A stretch of DNA of 30,783 nucleotides from a virus. Its lineage: Duplodnaviria > Caudoviricetes. The stretch spans positions 1 through 30,783 of the IMG/VR virus record IMGVR_UViG_3300034116_000273. One strand, written 5' to 3'. Both the position numbers and the translations under genes were made by a program. A model generated the notes under the pieces. The model was given only the letters and a program-made list of their open reading frames with translations, was not told the DNA's origin and did no database searches. Positions 1-30,783 of the stretch are shown here, piece by piece; within the stretch, counting starts at the first letter, position 1; the number at the start of each line of letters is the position of its first letter.

Positions 1-405
1 TGCATACAAGCCGTAGGCTGGTTCACCAACCCCTCCCGAAGGTCCTGTTAGCCCTGTATACAGGAGAATGTCTCCGTTTAGGGACACCGAGTATTCCTCG
101 CCTGCTAGGATGTACACCTCTGCTGCTAGCCCCGTGCCGCCGTAGAAGGGCGTGGTGGATAAAAGGGGTAAGTTCTGGGTGATGTTGATGTCCGCCTGGA
201 CTAGCGAGCTGACGTCTATCAGTCCTCTCCCTGCAGGATTAGGTGGGGTTTTGAATCTCAGCGGCCCTGTAGCTCCGCCTACATACACGTCGAAGACATA
301 GCGGAAGTTGTAGTTATAGGTTGCGTTCGACTCGACCATCCACACCATCGGGTTGTAAGCCGAGGAAAATATAGGTGGAGACTGTAGGGTATTAGTGATT
401 GCCAT
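1..405 (-). CDS. Putative tail/baseplate structural protein, N-terminal part (runs off window start)
   Basis: Not in ORF track. My translation from ATG at 405: MAITNTLQSPPIFSSAYNPMVWMVESNATYNYNFRYVFDVYVGGATGPLRFKTPPNPAGRGLIDVS...GEPAYGLYA, open to base 1. The ATG overlaps the upstream TAA (TAATG). In frame with the ORF entering at 30783. Confidence 0.8.
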   Translation of the reverse strand, partial: MAITNTLQSPPIFSSAYNPMVWMVESNATYNYNFRYVFDVYVGGATGPLRFKTPPNPAGRGLIDVSSLVQADINITQNLPLLSTTPFYGGTGLAAEVYILAGEEYSVSLNGDILLYTGLTGPSGGVGEPAYGLYA

Positions 406-680
406 TATCGTAATTGTGTTCTTAGATTTAGTTCTTGTTTTCTGATATCGTCTTTTTTCCAGGCGAGCCAGTTAAGGGCTGCTCGGAGAGGTAGTTCTGT
501 AGCGTCATTAAACCGGAGGGGATCTTCTCCAGATAAGACGTTAAAGAGGGTCCACCACTGTCGGGCTGGAGAGATTTTTCTAGGTCCTCCAGGTCTAGCA
601 GGTATGTCGAGTTCTTCTTCTCCAGGCTGGAAGAGTCCAGCATATTCTTTAGTGATTGACTTGCTGACTGCAAAAAAAAA
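405..680 (-). CDS. -1 frame C-terminal extension of tail assembly chaperone (gpGT-like)
   Basis: Open -1 frame from the T9 run (672-680): FAVSKSITKEYAGLFQPGEEELDIPARPGGPRKISPARQWWTLFNVLSGEDPLRFNDATELPLRAALNWLAWKKDDIRKQELNLRTQLR*. Its stop overlaps the next gene's ATG. Confidence 0.75.
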   Translation of the reverse strand, partial: FFFAVSKSITKEYAGLFQPGEEELDIPARPGGPRKISPARQWWTLFNVLSGEDPLRFNDATELPLRAALNWLAWKKDDIRKQELNLRTQLR

Positions 681-1189
681 GCGTTAGCGGACTTTATTGC
701 GGAGAGGGGGAGAAACTGAAATAACCTTTCCCTTTTCTTTGCGCCCTCGACTGTGTATTTTTCTAGTAAGATATAGTCTGGGGTCTCTTCGACTACGGGC
801 CTATAGACTATCGAGGCTATCTCTGCTAATCTCTTTTCTGGGCTAGGCCCCGAGGCTATAATGTCTAGGTCTGCGAACTCTCCGATGGTCATGTCCTCTA
901 TCTGGGGTAGGCCATACTTGACGCCCATAAACTCTATGATGGGCTGGATTGCTGCTGTGGTGTTCTGCCCCAGGATCATCTCCTCCACCTCTGACCACAG
1001 AAAAAACCAGTCGGAGGCCTTTAGTTCTCTGAGCGCTTCTTTAGGACACCCTGAGAGATATTCCACCACCTCGTAAGGCGTGTCTGCATCCGGGGCCTCT
1101 ATCAAGCCCATGACGTCTTTGTAGTTCTGCAGGTTGATGTCCCTCACTAGGTAGTCCTGGTTGTCTATGGTAAATTCTATTTTCTTCAT
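428..1189 (-). CDS. Putative tail assembly chaperone (gpG-like), 253 aa
   Basis: Start moved to ATG 1189 (MKKIEF...; ATGA overlap with the upstream stop). Contains MTIGEFADLD, acidic, has a GCT TTT TTT TTG slippery site, and lies in the tail module. Confidence 0.7.
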   Translation of the reverse strand: MKKIEFTIDNQDYLVRDINLQNYKDVMGLIEAPDADTPYEVVEYLSGCPKEALRELKASDWFFLWSEVEEMILGQNTTAAIQPIIEFMGVKYGLPQIEDMTIGEFADLDIIASGPSPEKRLAEIASIVYRPVVEETPDYILLEKYTVEGAKKRERLFQFLPLSAIKSANAFFLQSASQSLKNMLDSSSLEKKNSTYLLDLEDLEKSLQPDSGGPSLTSYLEKIPSGLMTLQNYLSEQPLTGSPGKKTISENKN

Positions 1190-1551
1190 AAATCTAGTTG
1201 TGCTTGTGCTTGCTCTAGTGCTTCCTCGAAAAACATCTCCGCTCTCGCCCACTGGGAATCGTCCAGCGATGACCAGAACCTAGGGACTATACCTCCTTCT
1301 CCTTTCTCTGGGTCCGGGGTAAATGGGCCTCGCTCTGTCGCCCTGTAATCTCTGGTACCAAAGTCAGTAAAGTCTCCATACTCTGTGGGGTCGTCAAGAG
1401 TAAAGGTGAACACGTCTCCTTCCCTTTCGTAGGTTGCCCTCACCGAGTCCATAAGGTTGCCAGTCTTGTAGGCGGAAACCTTTATCTGCCCCTGTACCAT
1501 TTCCTGGACATAGGCTGCTGTTCTCTCTGCTGCTATGGTGAATGGATCCAT
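1186..1551 (-). CDS. Neck/tail-completion protein (HK97 gp10-like)
   Basis: 121 aa with TGNLMDSV, YGxFxDFGT and PRFW motifs typical of this family; tail-module context. Confidence 0.6.
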   Translation of the reverse strand: MDPFTIAAERTAAYVQEMVQGQIKVSAYKTGNLMDSVRATYEREGDVFTFTLDDPTEYGDFTDFGTRDYRATERGPFTPDPEKGEGGIVPRFWSSLDDSQWARAEMFFEEALEQAQAQLDL

Positions 1552-1553
1552 GG

Positions 1554-2027
1554 TTAGTTAAAAGCCGCAGAACAAAGGTCGAAGGGCGAAGGAATAATAA
1601 TGTTTAGTTCTGCCGACCAGCCTGCTAGGTTGTTGTTGAACTTTTCCACAAAGGGCGTCAACCTGATCGGTGTCTGGATCTCCCAGTCTATCTCGGACGG
1701 GGGAGACATGATAACCCTAGAGAAAATGTCCTGCATGATCATCAGCGTGTTGTTGTGCGTGTTCTTCTGCAGATCTTCCTCGTTCTTAGCTATGTCTGCG
1801 ACGATCATAGTAAAGCCTAGAACCATCTTGCCGAACCTGTCCATAGAGGACGGTCTTGGTATCAAAAAGACGAAGGGATATCTCTGAAAAGGCTCTATGT
1901 TGGTCTGGATATCCACGTCGGACATTTCTCCTACCTGGAAATGCCTGACGGACATCTGCTGGAGACAAATGGTTTCCATTGCCTCTATGAGTTGTTTATA
2001 AGTGCGGGGTTCAGTATAAGCGGCCAT
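1554..2027 (-). CDS. Putative tail terminator/completion protein
   Basis: YPFVFLIP and PFVEKFNNNLAGW motifs. ATG 2027 preferred over GTG 2033 because it is 7 nt from the ATACTTA motif. Confidence 0.55.
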   Translation of the reverse strand: MAAYTEPRTYKQLIEAMETICLQQMSVRHFQVGEMSDVDIQTNIEPFQRYPFVFLIPRPSSMDRFGKMVLGFTMIVADIAKNEEDLQKNTHNNTLMIMQDIFSRVIMSPPSEIDWEIQTPIRLTPFVEKFNNNLAGWSAELNIIIPSPFDLCSAAFN

Positions 2028-2034
2028 ATACACT

Positions 2035-2060
2035 TAAGTATTATTTCTCAAGAAACTGCC
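2035..2060 (-). promoter_or_regulatory. Putative late promoter GGCA-N15-ATACTTA
   Basis: One of 8 fixed-spacing copies. Confidence 0.7.
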
Positions 2061-2599
2061 GAAGGAAGGATGTTCTCTATCTCTTTTAGTTTAGCCTCGT
2101 AGGCCTCGGACGCTTCCTCAGGTGTGTCAAATGATCCCAGATAATATGTCTTCCTGTTGTGCTGGTTGCCGACGTTTAGCCTAGCTCTAAACTTGCCCGT
2201 GCGCTTTACGACGTCCACGCCTCTGGGTAGTCCAGATTTTATAGTCCTCTCCTGGGACATGTTGTGTCTAGCCGTCGCCACCTCTAGGTTTTCTAAGCGG
2301 TTGTCCCAGCCGATCCCGTTTTTATGACACACAACCACAGATAATCCCTTGGGGACGTGTCCTAGAAAAGCCATAGCCACCAGCATGTGGGCTAGCATAT
2401 ACCTTGTTTTATCGCCTTTCTTACAAAGCGAGTAGGCGTGGTAGTAGTTACCGTTGCCCCACGGTTTAGTCTTAGACGGGGCTAGAAGTTGCTCTATTTT
2501 TTTCCCCCTGTAGTTTAGGGACTTTACTTGCCCCACAGTGGACACCTCGTATAGGCCTTCGTAGCCTGGGATGGGCGCCCAGATAATCTCTTGTTCCAT
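2048..2599 (-). CDS. NUMOD4-HNH-AP2 homing endonuclease
   Basis: WAPIPGYEGLYEVSTVGQVKS (NUMOD4), HMLVAMAF...CHKNGIGWDNRLENLE (HNH), GKFRARL...YLGSFDTPEEASEAY (AP2). Confidence 0.9.
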   Translation of the reverse strand: MEQEIIWAPIPGYEGLYEVSTVGQVKSLNYRGKKIEQLLAPSKTKPWGNGNYYHAYSLCKKGDKTRYMLAHMLVAMAFLGHVPKGLSVVVCHKNGIGWDNRLENLEVATARHNMSQERTIKSGLPRGVDVVKRTGKFRARLNVGNQHNRKTYYLGSFDTPEEASEAYEAKLKEIENILPSAVS

Positions 2600-2608
2600 T
2601 GTTTATGT

Positions 2609-2842: not shown

Positions 2843-2854
2843 ATTTTATATATA

Positions 2855-4540: not shown

Positions 4541-4541
4541 C

Positions 4542-5390
4542 TTATTTGTTCTTTTTAAACTGCTTAGTTAGACTAGCCAGGTGTTCTGGGTCCAACCTAT
4601 TCTTTTCCTTTTTGGTCTTCGCTTTTCTTACCCTTTCTATCTCTCCCTGGATGGGCTCACATTTCCACATCTGCTCTAGAGAATAATAAACCAAAGAAAA
4701 CCTGTAGGCCATGGGGTTTTTATAGTCGATTGGGGATACGCCGTGGAGAATGTCTTGTCCGTTGAAAATTGTGAGGGTGTTGTCTGCAACCTCTAGGGCT
4801 AGGTCTAGTTCGGGAATAACCAGGTATCCCCCTTCCACGTCCGACTTGAACACCACCATGTTGGACAGCATTCCCTTGAAGTTTCCAGAATCGTAGTGGT
4901 ATTTTAGCGGGTTGTTCTTGTTTACGATCCCAGAAGTAAAGGGCGAGTTGCTCATCTTCCAGTCTTCTAGGACTTTCTCCTTCACCGTGTCTTCGTGCTC
5001 CTGGTATTTCTGGGGGAAGTAGGTTTCGTAGTAGACTTTTAGCTGCTCTGCAAATGTCGTAATAACGTGGTGGTTCTTGGGATACTGGGTCGCCATCGAG
5101 GCCACTGTGCAGTAGTCGTTTCTCATCGGGATGCGGGGCGAATAACCAAACACCTTAGACTGCGTTGCAAGCCCGTTGGTTCTGGTCCCGTTGGGGTATT
5201 TCATGTTCTTAGCCGCCCAGCGTAAAGCAGAAGTGTCCTCTTTTAGCCTCGTGTAGAATAAGATGGGCTGTCCATTTTCGTAGATGATGCAGTCGTCCGA
5301 CATAATCTTACTGACGTCCGACACTAGTGCAGTTCTCTTGACGTATTCTTTTTTATCTATCGGCTTACGGATTAGATGTAGTTCTTTCAT
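4542..5390 (-). CDS. 2OG-Fe(II) dioxygenase, TET/JBP-like
   Basis: HxD (YHYDSGN), distal His (ILHGVSPI), 2OG-binding Arg (YRFSLVYY), GGYLVIPE. Start set at ATG 5390 (ATGA overlap). Confidence 0.8.
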   Translation of the reverse strand: MKELHLIRKPIDKKEYVKRTALVSDVSKIMSDDCIIYENGQPILFYTRLKEDTSALRWAAKNMKYPNGTRTNGLATQSKVFGYSPRIPMRNDYCTVASMATQYPKNHHVITTFAEQLKVYYETYFPQKYQEHEDTVKEKVLEDWKMSNSPFTSGIVNKNNPLKYHYDSGNFKGMLSNMVVFKSDVEGGYLVIPELDLALEVADNTLTIFNGQDILHGVSPIDYKNPMAYRFSLVYYSLEQMWKCEPIQGEIERVRKAKTKKEKNRLDPEHLASLTKQFKKNK

Positions 5391-6079
5391 TTTATTTTTA
5401 GTAAGATTTCGTTTGGTCTTTTTGAATTTAGTTTTAGGTATTTGGGCCATTTTTCTAGCAGGTAAGAGATGTTCTTCTTCTCCTCTAGCGATGTTCTGTA
5501 ATCAACCGCTCCTCCCTTGTTGTCGTAGTGTTTAAAGTGGAAGAGATATTTTTCCCAGCGCAGAATTATTCCCGAGTGTTTAAAGTGCTGGAGGGTAAAG
5601 TCGTAGTCTTCTTTTAGAGTTAGCCTGGGGTCGAACCTTACTGGGGTTGGTTTTACGCCGAAGAAATCCCCAATCACAAACCTGTTCTTCTCGATTAAGT
5701 TCTGTGAATAAAATGAATTAGCAGTTGGTGCTATCCCGACTAGGTTTACCTGGGGAATATCGTTCAAGAACTTTGCGTATTCTTCTATAGTTTCCAAGAG
5801 GGTTAGTTCTTGTTTAGGAAAAAAGTTGGTGTTGATCTTGATGGACATGAGGTCGTCCGACACTTGGAAACAAATCTTACCTTCTGCTGCTGCATGATCA
5901 AGCGCCCAGTTGCGGGATTCGATGAGGGTGCCCGTCTCGTTTACGCGTTTACACCCGGCCGCCTTGTATTCCTCTAGTTGTCCCGCCGGTACGCAAAAAT
6001 AATACAGGGCCTTTTCTTGGTCGGTAAAAGGAAGATCGTTAGACCTTCCTGCGCTGATAACGTAAACACTGTGCTCCAT
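5387..6079 (-). CDS. GT-A fold glycosyltransferase, TET-associated type
   Basis: VISAGR, SRNWALDHA, QVSDDL, KEDYDFTLQ, NKGG, LLEKWP; translationally coupled to the oxygenase. Confidence 0.75.
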   Translation of the reverse strand: MEHSVYVISAGRSNDLPFTDQEKALYYFCVPAGQLEEYKAAGCKRVNETGTLIESRNWALDHAAAEGKICFQVSDDLMSIKINTNFFPKQELTLLETIEEYAKFLNDIPQVNLVGIAPTANSFYSQNLIEKNRFVIGDFFGVKPTPVRFDPRLTLKEDYDFTLQHFKHSGIILRWEKYLFHFKHYDNKGGAVDYRTSLEEKKNISYLLEKWPKYLKLNSKRPNEILLKIK

Positions 6080-6663
6080 TAGTTGTTTGCTCTATAGTTC
6101 TCCATCAAGAAAATAAAAGCCTGGGTGTTGGACTCCATGTCTTCTTGCTTACAAATACCGTCTAAAAAGTTTACTACGTCTTCGTACTGCTGGGCGTCGA
6201 AATACAGAACAACCTGTTTTATCTTTGCGTTGATGTAAGCATCAAGCTTATTACCTAGATCAGAATGATCAAACTCGGGCTCTACATCATCATCAAAATA
6301 AGACTTTGGAATATCTAATCCCCAATCGGACAAATCATTTGTTGACCATTCGTCTATTAACACGTCCCAATCCCATTCTCCAAAAGAAGCATTATCCTTA
6401 ATAACAAACTCTTTCTGCTGTTCTTCTGACAAATCACTAGCCTTGATGATAGGAACTTGTTTTAGGCCGGCCGCGATGCAGGCTTTTAATCTCATGTTGC
6501 CCCCTAACACGATCATATCGTCGTTTACGACTATTGGTCTTAGGTCTAGCATTTGTGGAAAAGATTTGATTGACTGGACTAGTTTTTCAAACTTGTCGTC
6601 TCTAATAAACCTAGGATTAGAAGGATTTTCCTTTACCTTGGTGATTTCTACTGTTTGTATCAT
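6079..6663 (-). CDS. ParB/Sulfiredoxin-like N-terminal domain protein
   Basis: NPSNPRFI, LRPIVV, VLGGNMRLKA, FVIKDNASFGEWD. Confidence 0.85.
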   Translation of the reverse strand: MIQTVEITKVKENPSNPRFIRDDKFEKLVQSIKSFPQMLDLRPIVVNDDMIVLGGNMRLKACIAAGLKQVPIIKASDLSEEQQKEFVIKDNASFGEWDWDVLIDEWSTNDLSDWGLDIPKSYFDDDVEPEFDHSDLGNKLDAYINAKIKQVVLYFDAQQYEDVVNFLDGICKQEDMESNTQAFIFLMENYRANN

Positions 6664-9873: not shown

Positions 9874-10560
9874 TTATCTTACGAGACCTCGGTCTCTGAC
9901 AACTTTTTTTACCCGGTGGGTGGAAGTCCATCCGAATCTATTAATTATTGCATAAAAAGTCAAGCCCATTAAATAAAGTTTTTCTATTTCGTCCGCCTCT
10001 TCTTCAGTAGTGGGTGATTTACCTCCCGGAAGTCTTAGCTTTTGGATACCAGGACCCCCGTTTTTTGCACGAGCAACAACCAACCAATGTGGTAATAAAA
10101 GAAACTTGTGAAGTTCAGTAATATCCATCCCCAGTTTTTCTGCACGCTCTTCTATCTTTATTAAATGTTCAACAGATTTTTTGGTGAATTTTCTCTTAAC
10201 AGCTAGCAATTGATCCCGTTCTTTGCTGGTAAGAGTGTTGGATTTTCTAATGTTTTCCCAGCGCAGATCCAATGGGTTGCCGTTGACAAATAAAAAATGT
10301 GGACCAAATGCAAGTTCACCTGTGTAGCACTCCCAGATAATTCTAATCTTAGATCCGCAGTTTCTCCTTGTTGGTGTGTGTCTCACTATGGCCGTGTCTT
10401 GCTTTTCATAGACTGCATACACGGATTCGTCGTAGTAGAGAACCCCTAGTTGGTTTATTTTTATCTGGTGGACAGGATGTTGGAAAAATATTTCCTCTTC
10501 GTGGTCTTCTAGTTTAGGAAACTTAGCCTCGAAAAGATGTCTAGCCGGGTAGACTATCAT
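9874..10560 (-). CDS. Degenerate HNH-like protein with C-terminal HTH
   Basis: RIIWECY...FVNGNPLDLRWENI (catalytic His position is F); C-terminal IEKLYLMGLTFYAIINRFG. Confidence 0.6.
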   Translation of the reverse strand: MIVYPARHLFEAKFPKLEDHEEEIFFQHPVHQIKINQLGVLYYDESVYAVYEKQDTAIVRHTPTRRNCGSKIRIIWECYTGELAFGPHFLFVNGNPLDLRWENIRKSNTLTSKERDQLLAVKRKFTKKSVEHLIKIEERAEKLGMDITELHKFLLLPHWLVVARAKNGGPGIQKLRLPGGKSPTTEEEADEIEKLYLMGLTFYAIINRFGWTSTHRVKKVVRDRGLVR

Positions 10561-13090: not shown

Positions 13091-14005
13091 ATGACTAAAA
13101 AACCAATCAATTTATTACTACACATTCAAGGAGGGCTAGGAAAATGTATTATGGCCACTGCAGTCCTAGCCTCTTGGAAGAGAACTTACCCCGACTCTAA
13201 AGTCGTTGTTGTCTCCGGATATCCCGAGGTTTTTGTGAACAATCCATATGTTTACAAGAATTTTCCCTTCGCCACACCTTACCTCTGGAAGGACTATTAC
13301 GGCCGCCCAGGCTGGAAAGTATCTGCCCATGACCCCTATATGGAGGAAAGTTGGATTAAGAATGAAAATCTTCACCTCATAGATATCTGGTGTCGCATGC
13401 TAGGTGTTGATTCGGTCCAAAAGACCCCGTTGCTTTATTTTGCAGGTCCAGAAGTCGACGAACTCCAGGCTATGATAAAAGTCGATAAGCCTCTAGTTGT
13501 TGTCCAGTCGACCGGCGGGGCTAACCCAGCTGCTAGATCTTGGACACGTAATCCACCAATTGGTGAGTTCGACGAGTTTTTAGCTAGGTATAAAGAGACA
13601 CACTATGTTGTCCATCTGTGCTTACCAGAAACACCTGCGTTGTCTAACATACACCAGCGGGTGGAAAATTTAAACCGCCGACAAGCAATGGCTTTAATTT
13701 ATTTTGCCCAAGAAGTTGTTGGTATTGATTCGTATGCTATGCATGCTAGGGCGGCGAACTTAGAGGCTGGGCCTAGTACAATCTTCTTCCCACTAGCCGA
13801 ATCAGTAGATAGACTGGGATACACCAGAAGCGGATGGAATAATATAGTCCCCACTGCTCAAATCCAGCAAATGCTGCTAGACCACACTGATTACTATGCG
13901 ACTGTGTTTAAGTTGTCCATCGAGAATGTCTCTGACAACTGTCCGGTACCTGCTGGAACTAGGTGGTTTAACCTTAGTGTTAAGAGTAATACTCAACAAC
14001 TCTAA
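13091..14005 (+). CDS. GT-B fold glycosyltransferase, GT9 (heptosyltransferase)-like
   Basis: GGLGKCIMATAV, YPEVFVNNPYV, RSW, VGIDSYAMH motifs. Confidence 0.75.
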   Translation: MTKKPINLLLHIQGGLGKCIMATAVLASWKRTYPDSKVVVVSGYPEVFVNNPYVYKNFPFATPYLWKDYYGRPGWKVSAHDPYMEESWIKNENLHLIDIWCRMLGVDSVQKTPLLYFAGPEVDELQAMIKVDKPLVVVQSTGGANPAARSWTRNPPIGEFDEFLARYKETHYVVHLCLPETPALSNIHQRVENLNRRQAMALIYFAQEVVGIDSYAMHARAANLEAGPSTIFFPLAESVDRLGYTRSGWNNIVPTAQIQQMLLDHTDYYATVFKLSIENVSDNCPVPAGTRWFNLSVKSNTQQL

Positions 14006-14789
14006 CTATTCCAGAAGCTCCGGCTCCTCCTGCTAGAGGACAAGAAGCTCCAGTCCAAGTTCCAGCATTTCCCCCTCCTCCACCTGCTCCATACGGAGAA
14101 GCATTAGGTGGGGTTAGGTTATTAAAGCAGGTATCTCCCCCTTTTCCTAATCTTAATCCAAGATAAAATCTCTCGGGACCACCTGCTCCTGTAGTAGTTG
14201 AAGGTATTGCCGCGCAACCAGATCCCCCGCCTGCTCCGCCTAAAGAAGAAGTAGAAGCTGCAAAAGAAGAACCGCCTGCTCCGGGATTAATACACCCAGT
14301 TCCACCAACATTTCCATTGTATGTTGTTCCTGCCCCACCTGCTCCGGGTGAAACTAAAATTATACAGCAAGCAGTGCTGCAATAACATCCTCCGGACCCA
14401 GGAGATCCACCATTTGCTATAGCAAGTGCTCCGAAGCATGAATTACCACCGACTGAACCTATAGTTCCATTAGAACCTGCAGTTGCTGCTCTAGCCCCGC
14501 CAGCCCCGCCAGCTCCTATAATTACACAGTGTGTAGCAGAAAGTTCTGCGCAAGTGTAACAGCAGGAAGAAACTCCTCCGCCACCGCCGCCTGCTCCACC
14601 AGAAGCAGATCTAGTAGGAAATAAACTAGTGTTAATTCCTCCTCCCCCACCGCCTCCCCCACCTGCTCCAACAGCATAGACACAAGCATAGACTAGACCT
14701 GCAGGCCTAGTCCAAGTTCCATTTGCAGTAAAATCTCTTACTATAGGACCGGTTGCCCCGTTGTTAAAAAATCCATTGTTCCCAAACAT
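13980..14789 (-). CDS. Glycine-rich, Cys-rich virion protein
   Basis: FTANGTW...VGAGGGGG...GASGIVRVVEY domain. Confidence 0.75.
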   Translation of the reverse strand: MFGNNGFFNNGATGPIVRDFTANGTWTRPAGLVYACVYAVGAGGGGGGGGGINTSLFPTRSASGGAGGGGGGVSSCCYTCAELSATHCVIIGAGGAGGARAATAGSNGTIGSVGGNSCFGALAIANGGSPGSGGCYCSTACCIILVSPGAGGAGTTYNGNVGGTGCINPGAGGSSFAASTSSLGGAGGGSGCAAIPSTTTGAGGPERFYLGLRLGKGGDTCFNNLTPPNASPYGAGGGGGNAGTWTGASCPLAGGAGASGIVRVVEYYS

Positions 14790-14793: not shown

Positions 14794-16821
14794 TTAGGCT
14801 AGATTAGTTGCAAATGATCCGTAATAAACAGTTCCAATATAAATTAGTGAAACTGTAGTTACGCTCCCGATAGCCCCGGTTATAACTGGAGGGGTTGCAT
14901 TAGGCCATTTAACAGATGCAGGCCAAGTGATAGTGTATCCTCCTGCTCCTCCCTGGGTTATGAATAATCCATAGTTTGCTCCGTCGATAGGATTGGATAG
15001 AGTTAAAGAAGATATAGAAGATGTTAGGGTTAAACTCTGATTGTTTCCGTTGTCCCAATCTAGTGTTACAGTTCCACCGACGTCTCCGTTAGCGTTCGTT
15101 AAAGAAGCTCCTTGCCCAAAAGCAACTAAAGAGTTAACGTGCGTTGTGTTTTGTTTAATAGCAGTTAAATTATTTCCTATAACAACTCCTCCAGTTACTC
15201 CGCTTGTGCTGCAATGACCAAATACTAATCCATCGTTAGAAGTTACAGAACTTACAGATCCTACGACAATAGATCTTGCAGAAGATGATCCAATCGAAGA
15301 TGCGTTTCCCAATACCAAAGGTCCTGCGTCTGTTGGCGCAGAAAAACTTGAAATACCACAATTACAAGTGTTAAATCCGATACTAATTCTAAAAGGACCT
15401 CCTGAACAAACCTTACCGTTTGTTCCGATTGCGATTCCAAGATAATCCCCATTTGCGTTTGTTCCGATTGCTACTGCTTGTTGTCCTGAAACAGAATTAG
15501 GTCCTATTGAAATCCCTGAGAGATCGTCAGCAATTGCTCCAAGACCAATAGCAACAGAACCGTTACCATAAGCATTTGCTGTGTTGCAAGCTCCCTCACC
15601 AATAACTACCCCATATTCTCTTGCTATTGCGTCTTTTCCTATTGCTATACCTGTGCTGCAAATAGTTCTTGTATTACAACCAATTGCTATGCTATTTGAT
15701 CCAATAGTGCAAGCTGAATTACCCAGAACTACTGAGTTGCAAGCCCCGGTACCTCCGACAGAAGAGCAGCCTAAGACTATGGTGCCGGTTGCTCCTGTGT
15801 GGATAGTGTTGCAAAATCCTATAGCATTTGTAAAAGCGTTAGAAGAACAGATAGTGTTAGCAAGTCCTAAAGCCATAGTACAATTTGCAGAATTAACATT
15901 ATTAAAACCAACTGCAATTTTTACCCCACCAAATCCTCCAACCTGATTGCCTGAGCCTAATGCAAGAGCCGCAGCTGGAGATCCGCCTCCTCCTCCGTTA
16001 TTACTTCCAAAAACAAAAATATCTCCCCCAATAGGAACTGAGTTGTTATTACCAACCTGAATATGGTTGTTATAAGCTAATCCATTACTAAATCCGATAT
16101 TTATAGCTTGGCCCTGTGAAGAACATCCGTCTCCGATAGCAATACCATTATTATTTCCATCGACTTTTGCGTTTAGTCCTATTGCAATACCAAATCCACC
16201 TGCTGGACATGCGGTTGCATTAGTTCCGATAGCAATACTATTTTGTGTTGTTGCGCAAGCTGTTGCCCCAATAACGATTGCATTAGAGACAGTTGCAGTT
16301 CCTCCGATTGCTGTAGAAACTAAAGAGTTGGTTTGTTCGATGGTAATCGGAGAAGATGCTCCCGCTCCTGTTGCTCCCGCTGGGCCGGTTGCTCCAGTTG
16401 ATCCAGCAACACCAGAAGATCCATCTGCTCCAGTTGGTCCTGCAGGTCCAGTTGCTCCGTTAATACCAGAAGTTCCGCTGGTCCCAGAAGAACCACTTAC
16501 TCCGCTAGTTCCAGAAGTTCCCGATGTGCCGTTAATTCCACTGGTCCCAGAAGAACCACTTACTCCGCTAGTCCCAGAAGTTCCCGATGTGCCGTTAATT
16601 CCGCTGGTCCCGGAAGTTCCGGAAGTTCCTGCTGCTCCAGTTGTTCCTATAATGTTTCCTGTTACAATACCAGAAAAGTTTATTGTGGTGTCTGAAACCT
16701 GGATGTTTAGGAGATTACCTAGACCATCTGTGATTTCCTGTAAAGCCCCGGTAAGTCCAGTCGCCCCGATATTTAGGACACCTTCGTACGTGTCTTTAAT
16801 TTGTGATCCTGTTAAGTTCAT
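14794..16821 (-). CDS. Tail fibre/adhesin with GTS repeats and YadA-like head repeats
   Basis: G-X-Y run, then many SIAIG/AIAIG/AVAIG repeats; C-terminal ITQGGAGGYTITWPASVKW domain. Confidence 0.8.
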   Translation of the reverse strand: MNLTGSQIKDTYEGVLNIGATGLTGALQEITDGLGNLLNIQVSDTTINFSGIVTGNIIGTTGAAGTSGTSGTSGINGTSGTSGTSGVSGSSGTSGINGTSGTSGTSGVSGSSGTSGTSGINGATGPAGPTGADGSSGVAGSTGATGPAGATGAGASSPITIEQTNSLVSTAIGGTATVSNAIVIGATACATTQNSIAIGTNATACPAGGFGIAIGLNAKVDGNNNGIAIGDGCSSQGQAINIGFSNGLAYNNHIQVGNNNSVPIGGDIFVFGSNNGGGGGSPAAALALGSGNQVGGFGGVKIAVGFNNVNSANCTMALGLANTICSSNAFTNAIGFCNTIHTGATGTIVLGCSSVGGTGACNSVVLGNSACTIGSNSIAIGCNTRTICSTGIAIGKDAIAREYGVVIGEGACNTANAYGNGSVAIGLGAIADDLSGISIGPNSVSGQQAVAIGTNANGDYLGIAIGTNGKVCSGGPFRISIGFNTCNCGISSFSAPTDAGPLVLGNASSIGSSSARSIVVGSVSSVTSNDGLVFGHCSTSGVTGGVVIGNNLTAIKQNTTHVNSLVAFGQGASLTNANGDVGGTVTLDWDNGNNQSLTLTSSISSLTLSNPIDGANYGLFITQGGAGGYTITWPASVKWPNATPPVITGAIGSVTTVSLIYIGTVYYGSFATNLA

Positions 16822-16859: not shown

Positions 16860-18374
16860 TTATGCGAAATACTGAGTAACCTTAACGATACCTGGTCCGC
16901 CAGCTTGTCCTGATTGTGCTCCAGATCTTGCTCCGGCTGCTCCACCGCCTCCACCGCCTCCATAAGAAGTTCCACTTGTAGGAGAACAATTTGGAGTAAC
17001 TGAAGAAGGTGGAATACAATAAGTTCCTTGTCCTCCTCTTCCACCTGCTCCAAGAGTTATTCCACAAAGAGTAGCTGAAGATCCTCCTGCTCCTGCAAAA
17101 CCTCCGTAATAAGTTCCAGTATTAGTAACATAGGTTTGTCCTCCTCCTCCACCACCTCCTGGTGCAGTTGCGCAAGAACCTCCTGAAAATGCAGAAACAT
17201 CTCCTGCTGCAGTACAGGATCCTCCCCCTGCTCCACCGTTAGCATAGTTTCCAACCCCTCCAGGTGCAGAACCTGTAGGAACTTCTGGTGCAAATGCAGT
17301 TGTATTAGAAATTGCTGCGCAACCATCAGAACCTTTAGTAGCAGTAACTAAAGTTCCAAAACAAGATGCTCCAGATCCAACTACAATAGACTGAGAAGTC
17401 CCAAAATCAGAAGTTAGAGTGCAGATAGAAACTCCGCCACCACCGCCACCTCCGCCACCGGTAGATGCTTTATTTGGACCTGGGGTTGGTGTAGATCCAC
17501 CTCCTGCTCCTGCTCCACCTGCTCCAATTGCAACTACCTCTACACAGACTGCTCCTGGACAACAGGACCAAGTTCCATTAGAAGTAAAACACTGAACTAC
17601 GCAAGTAACGTACTGGGTGATTTTCATGATACCTGGTGCTCCTGCTCCTCCAGCTCCTCCACCTCCGGTGTTGGTATAACCTGCTCCTCCTCCACCGCCA
17701 CCTGCTCCATAGTTAGATGCTGCACATCCTGGACTTGGTGGTGCTGCCGGAAGACAAAAAGTAGTGCAGCCACTTTGTCCGCCTGTTCCAAGAACAAGTC
17801 CGCATAAAGTAGATCCACTTCCTCCGGATCTCCGTGAGGCTTGAACATAAGAAGGTGAATTAGTTCCGTCTGATGCTCCTCCTCCTCCGGGAAATCCAGT
17901 TTTAGATTGACCAGCTCCTCCTGCATTTGCTGGAGATGTAGATGTACTACCACCACAACCTCCATGGGAAGAATTTCCTTGGTTTCCAACTCCTCCAGGT
18001 GCACAAGATCTATCTGATGAATTTCCTCCTGCACCTCCAGGAACAATAACCAATGCGCCAAAACAAGTAGATCCACCAGCAGAATTTGCTCCTCCCCCAC
18101 CTCCAATTCTTACACATTCAGTAGAACTAAACCCAGAAGTTAAAGTGCAAATAGAAACTCCTCCTGCTCCTCCTCCTCCTGCACCATTAACCATTGCACC
18201 TGAAGTAAATGTTCCATTTGCTCCTCCTCCACCGCCTCCAACTGCAACTACTTCAAGACAAACTGCAGAAGGACAGCAAGACCAAGTTCCATTAGCAGTA
18301 AAACACTGGACTATAGTTCCGTAAGCTACTGTTGCGCATTGACTGCCGGCTATGCCTATCCCTGTTAGTATCAT
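16860..18374 (-). CDS. Glycine-rich, Cys-rich virion protein with tandem domain duplication
   Basis: Two copies of VQCFTxNGTWSCCP...GIxKxTQY. Confidence 0.8.
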   Translation of the reverse strand: MILTGIGIAGSQCATVAYGTIVQCFTANGTWSCCPSAVCLEVVAVGGGGGGANGTFTSGAMVNGAGGGGAGGVSICTLTSGFSSTECVRIGGGGGANSAGGSTCFGALVIVPGGAGGNSSDRSCAPGGVGNQGNSSHGGCGGSTSTSPANAGGAGQSKTGFPGGGGASDGTNSPSYVQASRRSGGSGSTLCGLVLGTGGQSGCTTFCLPAAPPSPGCAASNYGAGGGGGGAGYTNTGGGGAGGAGAPGIMKITQYVTCVVQCFTSNGTWSCCPGAVCVEVVAIGAGGAGAGGGSTPTPGPNKASTGGGGGGGGGVSICTLTSDFGTSQSIVVGSGASCFGTLVTATKGSDGCAAISNTTAFAPEVPTGSAPGGVGNYANGGAGGGSCTAAGDVSAFSGGSCATAPGGGGGGGQTYVTNTGTYYGGFAGAGGSSATLCGITLGAGGRGGQGTYCIPPSSVTPNCSPTSGTSYGGGGGGGAAGARSGAQSGQAGGPGIVKVTQYFA

Positions 18375-18376: not shown

Positions 18377-20233
18377 TTATGCGCTTAGATCTCCGAACAT
18401 ATACCAGGTGTCCGTATCCTGTTTAACAAGTGTTGCTCCAGAATAAGCCTGTGCTAGTTGTTTTTTAAGTCCTGCGGAATAGAGAGTAACTCCTGCTGCT
18501 CCAGTAACTCCTAGTGCACCAACCCCAATTCCATAACCTCTAGCAACCATTATCTGCGAGCCTGTTACAAATGCAGTAGTTGCGTTAGTTGGAATGGTAA
18601 ATGTTAGTGCTGCAGCCGATCCGCCGATGATTAGTTTATTTACGTCGGATAAACCAAAAGTATAATTCGAGTATTTAATGTTGTTAGCAACAATGGAAGT
18701 GTCTAGACCAGAAGTTCCAGAAGTACCAGAAGTTCCACTAGATCCGTTAGCCCCGGAAGTACCAGATGTACCATTTACGCCAGAAGTGCCTGACGTTCCG
18801 TCTGTCCCACTCGTGCCGCTAGTTCCACTAACTCCAGAAGTACCAGAAGTTCCACTAGATCCATTAGCCCCAGAAGTACCAGATGTACCGTTTACTCCAG
18901 AAGTTCCAGAAGTTCCATCGATACCAGAAGTTCCACTAGTTCCGTTAACTCCAGAAGTGCCCGACGTTCCGTTAGCCCCGGAGGTGCCAGAAGTTCCATC
19001 AGTACCAGATGTTCCGTTGACGCCGGAAGTACCAGAAGTACCATTTACGCCAGAAGTGCCTGACGTTCCGTCTGTCCCACTCGTGCCGCTAGTTCCACTA
19101 ACTCCGGAAGTACCAGAAGTTCCATCCGCCCCGGAGGTACCAGATGTTCCGTTTACGCCAGAAGTACCAGAAGTTCCGCTTGTTCCAGAAGGAAGAGAAA
19201 CTAAAATTAAAAGAATGTCTTCGTTGTTGGAGAAAGAATAAGTCGATGTGGTAAGTGTTACTCCATAAGTCCAGTAGGTCGAATTATCTGTTTTAGAAGT
19301 TATTGTCCAAGATTGGTAATCCAAATGTGAAGATTGACTTTGGATTGTAATCGTAGAACCAACAGGAAGACTTGATAAGAACAAATCTAAATTGTCGTTG
19401 TTTCTATCTAGTTCTGAAACATAAATTTCTGTAGCAGAAGCTTGAGTTACGTTATTCCAAGTAATGTGGGTAGATCCAGGATCTCCAGACTGAGAATTAG
19501 TTTTTGCAACGTAGCTAAAGAAAGAGTTAGAAAATCCTTGCTGTCCTTGTGGTCCGGTTGCTCCGTTAACTCCAGAAGTTCCCGAAGTACCATTTACTCC
19601 AGAAGTACCAGATGTTCCATCAGTCCCAGAAGTACCACTTGTTCCAGATACACCAGATGTTCCGCTTGTTCCATCGGTGCCACTAGTTCCGTTTACGCCG
19701 GAAGTACCAGATGTACCGTCGGTTCCAGAAGTACCAGAAGTTCCACTTGTCCCATCTGTGCCGCTAGTTCCGTTTACGCCAGAAGTACCAGAAGTTCCGT
19801 TAGCCCCGGAAGTGCCCGATGTTCCGTTAGATCCACTTACACCTGAAGTTCCGCTAGATCCGCTAGATCCGTTAGCCCCGGAAGTACCAGAAGTACCGCT
19901 AGATCCACTTACGCCGGAAGTTCCGGAAGTACCGCTAGATCCACTAGCTCCGGAGGTACCAGAAGTACCATTCACTCCAGAAGTACCCGAAGTACCGCTA
20001 GATCCGTTAGCTCCGTTAGCCCCGGAAGTACCAGAAGTACCAGAAGTACCGGCTGCTCCAGTTCCTCCTCCTCCGACGTTAATGTTAGAACCGGTGGAAT
20101 TGATAGCATAAAGAGTAGACCCGTCTGTATAGAGGGTTATGTAATCAGATGTTGGATTGGAAGGGGCTGTATTGGTGATGGAAAGATCTATCTGTCCTCC
20201 AGTTTCCCCTATAATAAATTTAGCAAGGCTCAT
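18377..20233 (-). CDS. Collagen-like (Gly-Thr-Ser)n fibre protein
   Basis: Two long G-X-Y blocks; C-terminal [10 protein letters not shown]...DTWYMFGDL domain. Confidence 0.8.
18768..19105. repeat. Exact 68-bp direct repeat inside the GTS array
   Basis: 18768-18835 equals 19038-19105. Confidence 0.8.
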
Positions 20234-20915: not shown

Positions 20916-21452
20916 TTACGCGTTGGTTACTGTTACGCCGGTTAGAGAGGCTAGAGACGAAACCTGGTAAGCCATTTCTGGTTCCATTGCTTGCAATACA
21001 AAAGAATATTGCGATGCGTCTCCTGGGGCCACCCCAGTGACTGTAGTTCCAGTGCTGACAACGCAGCCTCTGGTTAGTCCGACGAGCCAGTAAAGCCCGT
21101 TATTGTCTTCAAACAGAACCTTAGAGTTTCTGTTGTAAGTAAGAAGTTGGATTTGGGCTCTCTTAGCAGAAGATAGATGCTGAACAGGGATTGTAACCTC
21201 CTGGGTAAAGAAGGCTGTCCCGTTGGTGTTGGAGATGTTGAAAGTCTCAGTGAAACTTGCAACGTCTTTTGCCACCTCTATCTGATAGAATGTTCCAGTT
21301 GCTCCAGTGCAGGCTGTGATACCTGATGTTGCTCCTGCAGTGATTGTACCTAGATCTGCATTAGAACTCACCCAAAGCGTTTTGATACCACCGATTGAAT
21401 CCAAACAATCTAGGGCGATTGCGGCGGTGAGATTACATGATGTACTTGCCAT
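20916..21452 (-). CDS. Putative major tail (tube) protein
   Basis: CLDSIGGIK, NGTAFFTQEV, EDNNGLYWLVG; follows the capsid gene. Confidence 0.65.
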   Translation of the reverse strand: MASTSCNLTAAIALDCLDSIGGIKTLWVSSNADLGTITAGATSGITACTGATGTFYQIEVAKDVASFTETFNISNTNGTAFFTQEVTIPVQHLSSAKRAQIQLLTYNRNSKVLFEDNNGLYWLVGLTRGCVVSTGTTVTGVAPGDASQYSFVLQAMEPEMAYQVSSLASLTGVTVTNA

Positions 21453-21477: not shown

Positions 21478-22422
21478 TTAGATCGTAGATACGAACTGTG
21501 AATTGTAGATTGCAGTTCCAAGTTTGAACTTAGACATGAAATTCACTACATCTTGTGAAGGATCGTAGTAGAATTTGAACTTATCTGCATCATCAAGAAG
21601 ACCAGTACCAAAGAAAATGTACTTTTTAGGCCCAACTAGGATGTGAGTGTTCACATTGATTCCTGGTGCTGCGAAAATCGTGCAATTAGTTCCTGGAAAT
21701 ACAAATGAAGAAGGTGAATCTCCAGTTGCGTTGGTGATGTTAGGGTATTGACTGATCAATGAATTACCTTCTGCCATGATAGCCTGTACTAGGATCTGGT
21801 AGTTAGTGTAAGACATGTAAGCAATCAAGTCGTTCTCCTGCTTAAGTGCATTCGAAAGTTTGTTGATAATTCCCCACATAGATGCGAATGCAGTTGAAAC
21901 TGCGAAAGGAACTGTAATTCCTGCTCCGGTACCACCGATACATCCGTTTGCTACGGTTCCCTGTGCAAGTAGACCGTCTAGAGACGCTCCATCACCCTGC
22001 CAGATAGTGTTTTCAACATACTGTGCGATGTTAGCCACTTTGTTGTTAGCGATCTGAGCCTCGAAAGGAACAGTTTCATGGTAAGCAGAAGGGGTCAACT
22101 GAGAAGATAACCAGTAGTTATACAAGTCGTCTGGACACAGTTGTTCCTTCAGCATTTTCGCTTGAACAACTAGATCAATTTGATCGAAAACAGTCGCGTT
22201 TCCAGTTGCTCCACCAGGACCAGTTGTAGCAGTTGAAAAACCACAAGTTGCATCGATGATGTAAGGATTAGAGTTAAGTACGTTGATCGCTGAAGTACCT
22301 GCCGTCTTGCCTGCCTGCAAAGTTAGCATCTGTACTGAGTAAGGCTTCAAAAGGGCCTTGCTGATAAGGTCGGTTGATAGTTCGTCCGTATATGTGGACA
22401 AACCTGATAAATCGAAAGACAT
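21478..22422 (-). CDS. Major capsid protein
   Basis: 314 aa after protease and scaffold; EQLCPDDL, ENTIWQGD, FGTGLLDD. Confidence 0.8.
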   Translation of the reverse strand: MSFDLSGLSTYTDELSTDLISKALLKPYSVQMLTLQAGKTAGTSAINVLNSNPYIIDATCGFSTATTGPGGATGNATVFDQIDLVVQAKMLKEQLCPDDLYNYWLSSQLTPSAYHETVPFEAQIANNKVANIAQYVENTIWQGDGASLDGLLAQGTVANGCIGGTGAGITVPFAVSTAFASMWGIINKLSNALKQENDLIAYMSYTNYQILVQAIMAEGNSLISQYPNITNATGDSPSSFVFPGTNCTIFAAPGINVNTHILVGPKKYIFFGTGLLDDADKFKFYYDPSQDVVNFMSKFKLGTAIYNSQFVSTI

Positions 22423-26940: not shown

Positions 26941-26947
26941 GTGTTAT

Positions 26948-26973
26948 TAAGTATCTTTTTCTTGGTTTTTGGT
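26948..26973 (-). promoter_or_regulatory. Putative late promoter ACCA-N15-ATACTTA
   Basis: 7 nt before ATG 26940. Confidence 0.65.
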
Positions 26974-29891
26974 TAGAGATCCCAGATTATATCCGATAGG
27001 TTCCAGATGTCAGTTTCTTCGTTCCAGATATTTTCTGGACATACGTTCCATACGGTGGTTGAAGTTCCCCATGTATCTGTATCTGTAGACCAAACTGGAC
27101 ATCCAGGTTCCAGGGTAATACCTTTGATGAATGCTGTTACGAGATAGTTTGCTGCTGTTACGCCCGTCGGTAGCTGGGTGGAGATTGGACCTGCATAAAG
27201 TCCAGAATAACTTGTGTTAGCCACAGTTATAGAGTTTTCTTGAATAAAGATGTATTCCCCTTCGACGAAGTCTACCCCAGTCGCTCCGTTGTTCCAGGTT
27301 AGGGTTGTCCTAAATCCATAGTCGTAAGGGACGTTGTAGAAAAGTCCGGTAAAAGTATCGGGACCTTCTATGTTGTAGTACTGCATAGGAATGTAGGTTC
27401 CTGCAGTTCCTCCCGTTGCTCCTTCTATTAAGAAGGTCACGTTCATGTCGTCTCCGCCAGACACGCCTAGATCTATGTAGATGAATTCTCCTGCTGGAGA
27501 AGGCGTCACGCCCGAACAGTTTCCGTTAGGGATAGCAGTCCAGTTTGGAGGTAAAGCGTTAGCGTTAGGAAACAGAAGACACACAGATGCGCACGTCTGG
27601 GGAAGTAGAGTTAGTGTCTGCAGATTATTAAAGCAGTCCACGTAAGTCCAGGTGTTGGTCTCTACTACCTGTGTTTCTAGGTTGTTATTACACACGGCCA
27701 CGGACATACATTCTCCCTGTGCTGGGCCTGTTGCTCCGTTTGGTATGTTGGGAATAGCCTTTACTGGAACTTTTATCAGCTCCACTTTTACCAGGGCGGT
27801 CTCTCCGACTGGATAGTCTGCTATTTTGTTCACGAAATACCAGGAATCTTTCACCCAGATTTTATCGTTGAACTTTAATTTCTCCACGATCTGCGGATCT
27901 AGCCTGAATGTAGCAGTCTTTTGTCTGTTGTAAGGATCATAGATCCAGTTGATATAGTCTCTCCAGTAGTTTGTGTATAGGTCGGTAGCAGTCTTTCCCT
28001 CGTAGGTGGACAACGGAGACCAAAGCGGGGTCTTAGACTGGAAGGTTAGATCCAGGGTAAAAGACTGTGGAGGGAATGTTTGATATTCTGAAACTAGGGG
28101 GTACTTATTCTGAGCTGTACCTGTCGCCCCAGGGAGTAGAGTGGTGTTTAGGTACCAGTTTACTGGATTGCTCTGCAGGCCATTGTAAAACAGGATCCTA
28201 GGCTTAGGCTGGATAGGCTGTACCTTTCCCGCTCTGTTTTCGTTGGGATCTCCTGGTAGCAGTTTAGCCAGCGACGGAAAAACCCAGTCGGGCTGTGGGG
28301 TTGCTCTTGCAGGTATGCTCTGGAGTGGAGTAGGCGCAAATGGGATAGTCGTCTCTGTGGTCCCTTTTATCAGATTTATGCCCGAGTCGTACTCTCTGAA
28401 CATAAAGTTTCGCTTGAACTGCTGCTGGAAACTTAGGTTCTGGAAGTCTGCGTCGTCTGTTCCTGTAAATCTCTGGATTCTAGCCTGGTCCAGGAATGGT
28501 GCGTGCTGTTCCGAGTCGGCCGAACCGTCTAGATACTGGGTCCAGTCTTGGATTTCCCCTAACCTGATCCAGTCCACCCAGGGTTCTATCTGGAATCTCT
28601 TAGCCTGGTTTCTGTCTGGGACAAATACTAGGTTGAACATCTTGGTGATACCCTTGATAAAGTCTATGTTTTTCATCGTGCCCTCTGGAGGGAAGAATGA
28701 ATTGACTAGGACGCCCTCCGGGGCTAAGGTACACTCGAAGAGATTGCTAATAAAGGTAGCAAAAGAGGTAGAAGATGCTAGGTTGTTTATTTCTGCATAG
28801 ACTTTTTCCCCCTGTGCTAGAGTTACGGTTCTAGTTAATGTGTAAGAAGACTGTCCAAAAGTGTCGGTTTGCCCGTTCACCTGTCCGAGGGTTCCCTGTA
28901 TATCGGACTTTAGGAACACCCTGTATCTAGCCTGGAGGGACGGTTCGCTTTCTGCTCCCCCAGTCAGTCTAAATGTGTACACGCCAGAAGTTTTTGCGAT
29001 ATACTCTGCTGTCGTGGTGGAAAAAGATAAACTCGGATTGCTGATTTCATTGTTATAAAGGATCCTAGTAGTTGTACCAGTCGGGATACCGAAGTCCTCT
29101 GCTGCAACAGAACAAAGGCCCGAGATGGACTGCTCCACTCTAGCCAGCGAGTCCGAGATAAAGTACAGGGAGTCGAAGAGGTCCGAGGTCAAAAAGGCCG
29201 ACTCGTATGCGTATCCCGCTGTGGAAAATATTTTATCCCAAAGCCACTTGATCCTCACTGCAGGCTTAAACTGTCTGAGGCTTAGCCCCGCGGTGGGGCC
29301 TATCGTGAATGATCTGTTGAACTGGTGGGACAGGGTGTTTTGGATCGGAACATTGTCTGTGCCGTATGTGTATCCCCACTCGCACAAAGGGTACAGAACA
29401 TTTCCGTCTTTAAAGCCTGCGGTTGCTCCTGCGGTCGCCCCCCAGGAGGAAACAACGTTTGCATAGGTCAAGTTGTGGTCTAGTTCCGACGTGTCAATGG
29501 AATTCATGTAGGCCGTGCCTACCGCCGCCGAGAAGTTGGAGGTGTCCCCCATAAAGAACACCTCGTATTCTATGCGGTTTAACCTTTCGTTTATAAAAAC
29601 CGACTTTAAATTTAGATTTCCTATGGTGAACAAGAACCCGTTGTTGTTGATCCACGCTTGGGCCGTCTTAGAGGCGTCAAAAGAATACCCGTTTACGGAG
29701 AATACGTCCTCGAAGAACTGTCCGTTTACCCCTTGTCCGGGTATCCTAAATGTCTGGGAGTAGTAGGAAGATGGGGAAAAAGCATCTAGCGACGCTACCG
29801 ATAAGTTTAGTTTTATCGGAGATGTCTCTGACAACTGCAGAAGAACTGTTTCCCCCGCCGAGTTTACTGCAAATAATTGTACGCTGCTCAT
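26973..29891 (-). CDS. Large tail/baseplate hub-like structural protein
   Basis: 972 aa; SQTFRIPG, DFIKGITKMFNL, KVELIK motifs; adjacent to tape measure. Confidence 0.7.
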   Translation of the reverse strand: MSSVQLFAVNSAGETVLLQLSETSPIKLNLSVASLDAFSPSSYYSQTFRIPGQGVNGQFFEDVFSVNGYSFDASKTAQAWINNNGFLFTIGNLNLKSVFINERLNRIEYEVFFMGDTSNFSAAVGTAYMNSIDTSELDHNLTYANVVSSWGATAGATAGFKDGNVLYPLCEWGYTYGTDNVPIQNTLSHQFNRSFTIGPTAGLSLRQFKPAVRIKWLWDKIFSTAGYAYESAFLTSDLFDSLYFISDSLARVEQSISGLCSVAAEDFGIPTGTTTRILYNNEISNPSLSFSTTTAEYIAKTSGVYTFRLTGGAESEPSLQARYRVFLKSDIQGTLGQVNGQTDTFGQSSYTLTRTVTLAQGEKVYAEINNLASSTSFATFISNLFECTLAPEGVLVNSFFPPEGTMKNIDFIKGITKMFNLVFVPDRNQAKRFQIEPWVDWIRLGEIQDWTQYLDGSADSEQHAPFLDQARIQRFTGTDDADFQNLSFQQQFKRNFMFREYDSGINLIKGTTETTIPFAPTPLQSIPARATPQPDWVFPSLAKLLPGDPNENRAGKVQPIQPKPRILFYNGLQSNPVNWYLNTTLLPGATGTAQNKYPLVSEYQTFPPQSFTLDLTFQSKTPLWSPLSTYEGKTATDLYTNYWRDYINWIYDPYNRQKTATFRLDPQIVEKLKFNDKIWVKDSWYFVNKIADYPVGETALVKVELIKVPVKAIPNIPNGATGPAQGECMSVAVCNNNLETQVVETNTWTYVDCFNNLQTLTLLPQTCASVCLLFPNANALPPNWTAIPNGNCSGVTPSPAGEFIYIDLGVSGGDDMNVTFLIEGATGGTAGTYIPMQYYNIEGPDTFTGLFYNVPYDYGFRTTLTWNNGATGVDFVEGEYIFIQENSITVANTSYSGLYAGPISTQLPTGVTAANYLVTAFIKGITLEPGCPVWSTDTDTWGTSTTVWNVCPENIWNEETDIWNLSDIIWDL

Positions 29892-29892
29892 A

Positions 29893-30783
29893 TTAAAATC
29901 CTTGTACTACGTCTGGTTGTGCTTCTGTGAATGACACAAAATATTGGAATAGCTTTTCTCTCGCATAGTTCTGGACTGCATAGCTTGCGTCGGTGATGTT
30001 AACGAGAGTGGGCTGGGTGCGACCAGGAAGGTAAACTAGGACTGACGGAGATGCAAACATGGATCTCAGCCACTCTGATTCCTCTTCTGTGATCCAGTCT
30101 GTCGAGGCCGTCCAGGTGTTGTTTAGGTCTATCCTGAATGTCGTAGTTCCGTATCTAGCCGGAGAGTTGTCTCCGACAGAATAAGTTGATGCTGACCAGT
30201 AGCCCGGAAGTTTATACAGGGTGGACCTAGATGCGTTCTGGGTAAATGTGTTGCGCTTGATAAAGGTGTACCAGTCCCGGCCGCCTAGGTTGTTCAGCCA
30301 GGTAAATCTGATTGGGTCAAACCCCCAGCAGTTTGCGTCGTTTATCTGCAGGGTGATGGTCTCGGACAGTCCTGTAGCTCCTAGCGTGCAAGCCCCGTAG
30401 GTTGCATATGGGAACAGCTGGAGAGTTACGGTGTCGAAGGCTCCTGGGATTTCGTCTTGGACGTCCGCCATGTTTATCTTGAATGAATTTAGGTAGTCCG
30501 ACGCTGCTGTTGGGCCCGTACCGAAGGTGGTGCAGGACGTCCAGTTGCCCCCGTCGGCCTCGACGTTGATAAAGCCTGTTGCCCCGACTGTAGCCCCGTT
30601 GATGAAGGTAGTCATTTTCATAGCATACGGGAAGGTCTGCGGGCCTGTAGCCGCCGCGAAGTTGTAGTTTAGCCAGGTAAGCGTAAAGGTCTCGTCGGAT
30701 CTTATGCTCTGGACTGACTGTGGACACCGAGTTAAAAACTTACCCCCTGTGTTAGCAGTTTGTCCTAGCGACATCTCGTATTC
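29893..30783 (-). CDS. Tail structural protein, C-terminal part (enters from window end)
   Basis: Frame open to 30783 (EYE-MSLGQ...); WLNNLGGRDWYTF and SPSV motifs. Confidence 0.8.
   Translation of the reverse strand, partial: EYEMSLGQTANTGGKFLTRCPQSVQSIRSDETFTLTWLNYNFAAATGPQTFPYAMKMTTFINGATVGATGFINVEADGGNWTSCTTFGTGPTAASDYLNSFKINMADVQDEIPGAFDTVTLQLFPYATYGACTLGATGLSETITLQINDANCWGFDPIRFTWLNNLGGRDWYTFIKRNTFTQNASRSTLYKLPGYWSASTYSVGDNSPARYGTTTFRIDLNNTWTASTDWITEEESEWLRSMFASPSVLVYLPGRTQPTLVNITDASYAVQNYAREKLFQYFVSFTEAQPDVVQGF

Follow-up and report, generated by a model that had tools for sequence, protein, structure and literature searches.

The tetrapeptide GATG, in broader form small-Gly/Ala-Thr-small, is under selection as a peptide and sits in variable loops of outer virion proteins, both in the phage analysed here and in its relatives. 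Its enrichment is a real and strong sequence feature. The motif may be a threonine O-glycosylation tag that is read by a cytoplasmic enzyme of the host; this is the reading that we tentatively prefer, while rating it somewhat short of probable. The GT9-like protein encoded by the phage itself is probably not the writer of the tag.

The GATG motif in the phage genome and in its relatives

At 30,783 bases, the stretch of DNA analysed (the window) represents a complete circular phage genome. The record is considered circular because a split tail ORF is continuous across the window ends as a single 431-aa frame, its N-terminal part lying at 1-405 and its C-terminal part at 29893-30783. Almost all genes are on the − strand; an exception is the 304-aa gene at 13091-14005 (+ strand), which has the fibre block on one side and the portal on the other. 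Of cultured phages, Nonlabens phage P12024 is the closest (portal 24%, terminase 35% identity), and of the three portal matches found in bacterial assemblies, two carry a Bacteroidota label, which weakly suggests a Bacteroidota host. The head-gene order of Nonlabens phage P12024S (Inhavirus) is similar to that of the window; unlike the window, that phage has no GATG in its ORFs of at least 150 aa. Sequence searches found no capsid relatives in bacterial genomes, and no capsid or tail tube relatives in cultured phages. Scans of 26 and 31 window ORFs turned up nothing recognisable as an endolysin, polymerase, primase or helicase. A TET/JBP oxygenase, a TET-associated glycosyltransferase and a ParB-like gene stand in a row at 4542-6663 (− strand), likely a DNA hypermodification module to judge by its gene content, with no counterpart in the 20 related genomes compared.

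Six-frame translation yields 17 GATG peptides, every one on the − strand; 16 are in frame, and the off-frame one (30551) lies within a 40-codon stretch. The in-frame totals are identical, protein by protein, to those counted by hand in an earlier sequence-only reading of this DNA. All the genes concerned lie on that strand. The major capsid protein (314 aa, HK97 fold, 21478-22422) has one copy at residues 71-74 (22201-22212) and a GGTG at residues 163-166 (21925-21936). The likely tail tube protein (178 aa, 20916-21452), its role assigned by gene order and its sole match being an unnamed PHROG, has one at residues 50-53 (21294-21305), as well as GATS at 40-43 (21324-21335). Four copies are found in a 972-aa protein that by gene order is likely the tail-tip protein (26973-29891; GATG at 28119-28130, 27726-27737, 27411-27422 and 27276-27287, GATA twice at 29418-29441), and three in the split 431-aa tail protein (30574-30585 and 30370-30381 in its C-terminal part, which also has AATG at 30643-30654, and 265-276 in its N-terminal part). 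The collagen-like fibres carry five (675 aa, with a YadA-like head, 14794-16821) and one (618 aa, with GTS-type triplets, 18377-20233; GATG at 19553-19564), and a 269-aa Gly_rich_2 protein (13980-14789) has one close to its N-terminus (14748-14759). The motif is absent from the portal, tape measure, scaffold, protease, terminases and all non-structural ORFs tested, as had been claimed.

In the four non-repetitive outer proteins (capsid, tube, 972-aa and 431-aa; 1,895 aa in all), GATG occurs 9 times against 0.20 expected from 1,000 shuffles inside 20-residue blocks, which never gave more than 3, so that the enrichment outlasts correction for composition. The anagrams GTAG (1) and AGTG (0) are at chance level in the same proteins, where GATG is the highest-ranked tetrapeptide with a Poisson p of 4e-15 (the runner-up has 4e-5). 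The fibres and accessory proteins reveal a smaller excess (7 vs. 1.5, shuffle maximum 6) and no enrichment of G-x-T-G (17 vs. 18 expected). GATG is missing from a 196-aa protein and from the 504-aa tandem Gly_rich_2 protein (16860-18374, − strand; 0 vs. 0.49 expected), though the composition of the latter is favourable. The zero count in the inner proteins of this single genome carries little weight, since the expectation is 0.06.

Two trivial causes were ruled out. The motif is not a DNA-level one, as the codons vary freely and 16 of the 17 codon-pattern matches fall in the reading frame of the coding strand; block shuffles and anagrams dispose of local composition for the outer globular proteins.

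A short (5-residue) insertion is present in 100 of 121 close capsid homologues, and GATG is invariant in it (100/100), while the adjacent residues 63-67 are variable; the other 21 have no insertion. With 17 GATG codon combinations across 28 distinct genes, this bears out the claim that selection acts on the peptide. The second capsid site is GGTG, SATG, SGTG or AATG in close homologues, the Thr always being retained. Tail tubes of relatives have the motif at three different positions, and in the 972-aa family it falls into 19 raw alignment columns, a figure inflated by alignment noise. Pooling of 11 motif-rich genomes gives GATG 52 vs. 2.1 expected in outer proteins and 0 vs. 0.7 in inner ones, which agrees with the claimed limitation to the outer virion. 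In the same pool GASG is enriched (9 vs. 1.2, maximum 5) and GAVG absent (0 vs. 1.0), i.e., Ser is accepted at the Thr position and Val is not. These genomes were picked after the GATG counts had been seen (G003 and G041 were excluded from the pools) and are mutually related, hence non-independent, so the pooled figures are a description and not a test.

A second lineage, with capsids 26-30% identical, places its capsid GATG outside the window's loop, behind the spine helix and at the A-domain entry; at one of its loci (L305) the outer proteins contain 4 copies vs. 0.11 expected, and the protease holds one. Across 144 distant capsid clusters of the wider family, GATG occurs in 6, weakly over the shuffles (6 vs. 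2.7, maximum 6), and throughout the family G/S/T/A abound in the same three capsid loops. In one relative (G033) GATG is present in the fibre repeats and is lacking in the outer globular proteins.

According to the predicted capsid model (mean pLDDT 74.9, HK97 fold), GATG 71-74 lies where a long hairpin turns from strand 42-50 to strand 78-95, in a loop whose residues 70-74 have a pLDDT below 50. In an HK97 fold this loop would be the tip of the E-loop, facing outward. Mapping on the predicted structure thus places the capsid copy in a low-confidence hairpin loop, in line with the loop location that the sequence-only reading looked for. By indel percentile, the capsid and tube sites rank 87th-99th; those of the tail proteins spread over the 41st to 95th, with 3 of 11 at or under the 58th.

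Several neighbouring patterns were observed. The fibre N-terminal domains bear a short motif that matches the repeat type of each phage, GATG, GTSG or GAQG (window 16756-16767, L016, L017, L032). A distant clade represented by G021 (L115, L116) has SG[ST]T in outer proteins 5 times vs. 0.19 expected, as well as TPTP repeats and FkbM and Methyltransf_24 genes; its sequence would be consistent with possibly a different tag. The clade of G034, G039, G041 and G045 possesses a primase and an endolysin-like peptidase, and has neither collagen-like fibre genes nor GATG in outer proteins. An HNH-like/HTH protein is encoded at 9874-10560 (− strand) of the window; its family follows the motif better than the GT9-like gene does, being present in motif-rich genomes of both lineages and absent from motif-poor genomes and from G017.

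Readings of the motif

A covalent modification site is the simplest account of the invariant Thr, its small neighbours, the tolerance of Ser and not of Val, and the restriction to outer proteins. The acceptor-tag reading is therefore drawn from this Thr pattern together with three precedents. SgtA of C. difficile transfers O-GlcNAc in vitro onto Thr, and also Ser, of GATG-containing collagen peptides (PMC7157674). A phage tail protein is reported to be methylated at a short motif by a host enzyme (PMC13445384). The capsid and tail tube of mycobacteriophages bear C-terminal glycans (Freeman et al. 2023, as cited in PMC12619734). The enzyme that reads the motif is likely the host's, since GATG is retained in several relatives from which the phage's predicted sugar transferase is missing. 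The loop Thr of GATG would thus mark the acceptor on capsid, tail and fibres, a host cytoplasmic glycosyltransferase would add a sugar to it, and the particle would become sugar-coated in all three parts; the GT9-like protein would play an optional part, lengthening or capping the glycan or modifying the host surface. Outward exposure of the motif, modification at the Thr hydroxyl, a sugar as the adduct and a host origin of the enzyme are all inferred.

The likeness to the known systems is partial. The mycobacteriophage system shares the capsid and tail tube targets and a glycosyltransferase among the virion genes; its glycans are C-terminal (PMC12619734), whereas here the motif is internal, occupying loops in seven or more proteins, and is retained where the phage has no transferase. 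With SgtA and its substrate BclA3 the shared element is Thr in G-x-T-G collagen-like peptides including GATG, the match here being in sequence context alone. SgtA is a GT-A enzyme plus TPR encoded beside its own substrate (PMC7157674), whereas the motif here also stands singly in globular proteins. No GT-A plus TPR enzyme was found among the 26 and 31 window ORFs, where the sole GT-A-like match is the TET-associated one (TAGT). Of the marks of phage-encoded virion glycosylation, the window has a putative transferase gene near the virion genes, 13091-14005; it does not have an acceptor motif dependent on the phage transferase. No description of GATG or of a sequon-type motif on phage virions was found in the literature searched, mostly non-subscription papers without supplements.

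In Bacteroidota, the general O-glycosylation motif is D-(S/T)-(A/I/L/V/M/T). GATG does not fit it, and that motif is unenriched in the capsid family (139 vs. 169). Several points count against the tag reading: the 504-aa Gly-rich protein and the outer globular proteins of G033 have no GATG, the capsid loops are G/S/T/A-rich family-wide with exact GATG weakly over the shuffles, the second-lineage protease has a copy, and 3 of 11 tail-protein sites rank low for indels. So does the observation that Thr-rich phage collagens produced in E. coli were not glycosylated (PMC3368898).

The motif could instead be structural, a tight turn of small residues seeded from collagen-like repeats and kept for folding or assembly without any modification. 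That is unlikely in our judgement, even though the composition of the capsid-family loops, the several fibre collagen runs that end in GATG and the lack of GATG in the clade without fibres all speak for it. The order of the residues matters (pooled counts are GTAG 3 and AGTG 0 against GATG 52), GATG is common to unrelated folds, capsids without the insertion (21/121) still assemble, the fibre-bearing G009, G014, G033 and G043 are motif-poor, and the capsid site is predicted to be disordered. It is also quite unlikely that the motif docks a partner, whether a decoration protein, a host surface molecule or the N-terminal domain of a fibre. A docking role would suit a motif that is exposed, invariant and repeated on many virion proteins, the fibre N-terminal domains among them. 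Against it, no small structural gene follows the motif, the best follower being the HNH-like/HTH protein that G017 lacks, and Ser is tolerated at the Thr position where Val is not.

The GT9-like protein at 13091-14005

The sequence-only reading held the 304-aa protein to be GT9-like, and its predicted model (pLDDT 89.9) agrees: a GT-B, GT9-like fold closest to WaaC/WaaF. The best fold matches are GT9 LPS heptosyltransferases (WaaC/WaaF/WaaQ, Z 16-20); listed structures include 3tov (Z 19.9, rmsd 3.6, 275 aligned), 1psw (WaaF, Z 17.9) and TibC (Z 17.6, rmsd 3.2, 264 aligned). A chloroplast NDH subunit also matches with Z 17.6; other families reach at most 9.5. Unlike WaaC/WaaF/WaaQ, the protein belongs to a phage-restricted subfamily with no PF01075 match in any of the 81 members; TIGR02201 (NCBIfam) matches 36 of the 81 weakly (best E 2.6e-4), and the Atlas neighbour cluster is 57% PF01075. 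Sequence searches of solved structures gave no match, and promoter scans around the gene were at chance level. Among 401 genomes from the phylum of a Flavobacteriaceae assembly, a host copy was sought and weak partial matches appeared in 4 only.

The subfamily has an invariant GGLGK, with Lys18 conserved in 81/81, and an invariant D-S-x3-H. By topology, Lys18 would stand where an acidic base is expected after the first strand, in the place of TibC Asp110. The BAHT enzymes (TibC/AAH) share the GT9-type GT-B fold and are protein O-glycosylating. The 304-aa protein differs from them (PMC4358343) in having 11% identity, Lys at the inferred base position, no N-terminal beta-barrel and no four-Cys iron finger. 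Its model residues 1-304 align to TibC 90-393 with no domain before the catalytic part, and its Cys residues (19, 101, 177, 284) form no CxxC and just two are conserved.

Of 46 related records, 6 have the gene; among the 15 that are at least 90% complete, 4 do. Six of the 11 near-complete relatives without it are motif-rich. In G002, G003, G017, G025 and G030, all motif-rich, the slot is intact but empty of a GT9-like gene, and no other glycosyltransferase was recognised; G030 is closed by terminal repeats. G016 was set aside as a GT-less case because its contig end falls inside the slot. A search with a GT9-like profile and of all frames of at least 130 codons in G002, G016, G017, G025 and G030 found no such gene. 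A Pfam scan of the unclassified ORFs of 20 genomes (97 of 116 ORF representatives, 19 spurious-looking or redundant ones being omitted) gave its sole glycosyltransferase match in G028. With G016 omitted, GATG numbers 29 per 11,976 aa with the gene vs. 17 per 8,692 aa without it (2.4 vs. 2.0 per 1,000 residues), and G-x-T-G 59 vs. 53 (4.9 vs. 6.1 per 1,000 residues). Presence of the gene is scattered through an unresolved clade; G017 lies outside it on a long branch.

Among 33 capsid-to-portal loci, one of them the window copy and several near-duplicates, 8 have gene and motif, 5 the motif alone, 20 neither and none the gene alone. This tally and the motif-rich GT-less genomes indicate a gene nested in motif-bearing phages yet dispensable. 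It may be an accessory, since it is found solely in motif-rich genomes wherever capsid or tail genes could be checked, and its confinement to motif-rich loci (8/8) suggests that it keeps some role. The same subfamily (51-66% identity) adjoins fibres in the second, motif-bearing lineage, often with a DUF6734-like partner. Homologues at 25-38% identity in large phages have 0-3 GATG in nearby virion-like proteins, and GATG is the top word in 0 of 94 such loci. A transferase beside fibre genes has been proposed to modify the host surface (PMC7029224, PMC10202952).

That the phage enzyme writes the tag, the GT-less relatives being recent losses or supplied by co-infecting phages, thus seems very unlikely. 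TibC, a protein O-heptosyltransferase, among the top fold matches of the model, the position of the gene beside fibres with the motif in 8/8 cases, and the same subfamily in a distant motif-bearing lineage would favour it. The five motif-rich genomes with an intact empty slot, including closed G030 and long-branch G017, the similar densities with and without the gene, the 25-38% homologues without nearby GATG excess and the invariant Lys at what would be the base position speak against it. Of the two writers that the sequence-only reading had offered, the GT9-like one is not borne out and the host one fits better; the motif persists independently of the GT9-like gene. A host enzyme that attaches a non-sugar group (phosphate, phosphodiester, acyl or methyl) to Thr is likewise very unlikely: sequence evidence points to the hydroxyl alone and a host is reported to methylate a phage tail motif (PMC13445384), but the one in vitro precedent found for the peptide context is O-GlcNAc transfer (PMC7157674), and the accessory genes travelling with the motif resemble sugar transferases.

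Other gene contexts were noted. In the second lineage, a gene of 278-288 aa stands ahead of the GT9-like gene on the same strand (L160:6932-7792, L232:1579-2439, L238:5604-6437, L250:9126-9989); one of five scanned weakly matches DUF6734, and it is possibly a second transferase. At L225:1-5979 a 73% identical GT9-like gene adjoins a large type IX secretion (CHU_C) protein, which would mean either a bacterial context or a chimeric assembly. Distant GGxGK-type homologues at L143:5998-10561 and L213:252-5145 lie in accessory clusters of large phages; by eye, these clusters also contain genes resembling those of oxygenases, sulfotransferases and carbamoyltransferases. G028 (L119:618-3904, L120:15548-16982) has GTP cyclohydrolase I, radical SAM, GT1 and methyltransferase genes, a cluster that we take to resemble that of 7-deazaguanine DNA modification.

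What the tag would mean

A broader form of the host-read tag reading may be entertained, if with clear doubt: in these 30-kb phages a portable tag that recruits a host cytoplasmic protein glycosyltransferase would sugar-coat the whole particle and would have been gained independently, in different capsid and tail loops, by separate lineages, with swaps of GT9-like/DUF6734-like genes varying the outer sugars as virion serotype switching. If true, phages could have their virions glycosylated without enzymes of their own, and metagenomic sequence could reveal this through a tag of four residues; surveys that count phage glycosyltransferases would overlook such phages. The motif pinpoints residues (capsid Thr73, tube Thr52) and could lead to the host via its enzyme. 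Even without glycosylation, it would have to be explained why unrelated virion folds have repeatedly gained one and the same tetrapeptide.
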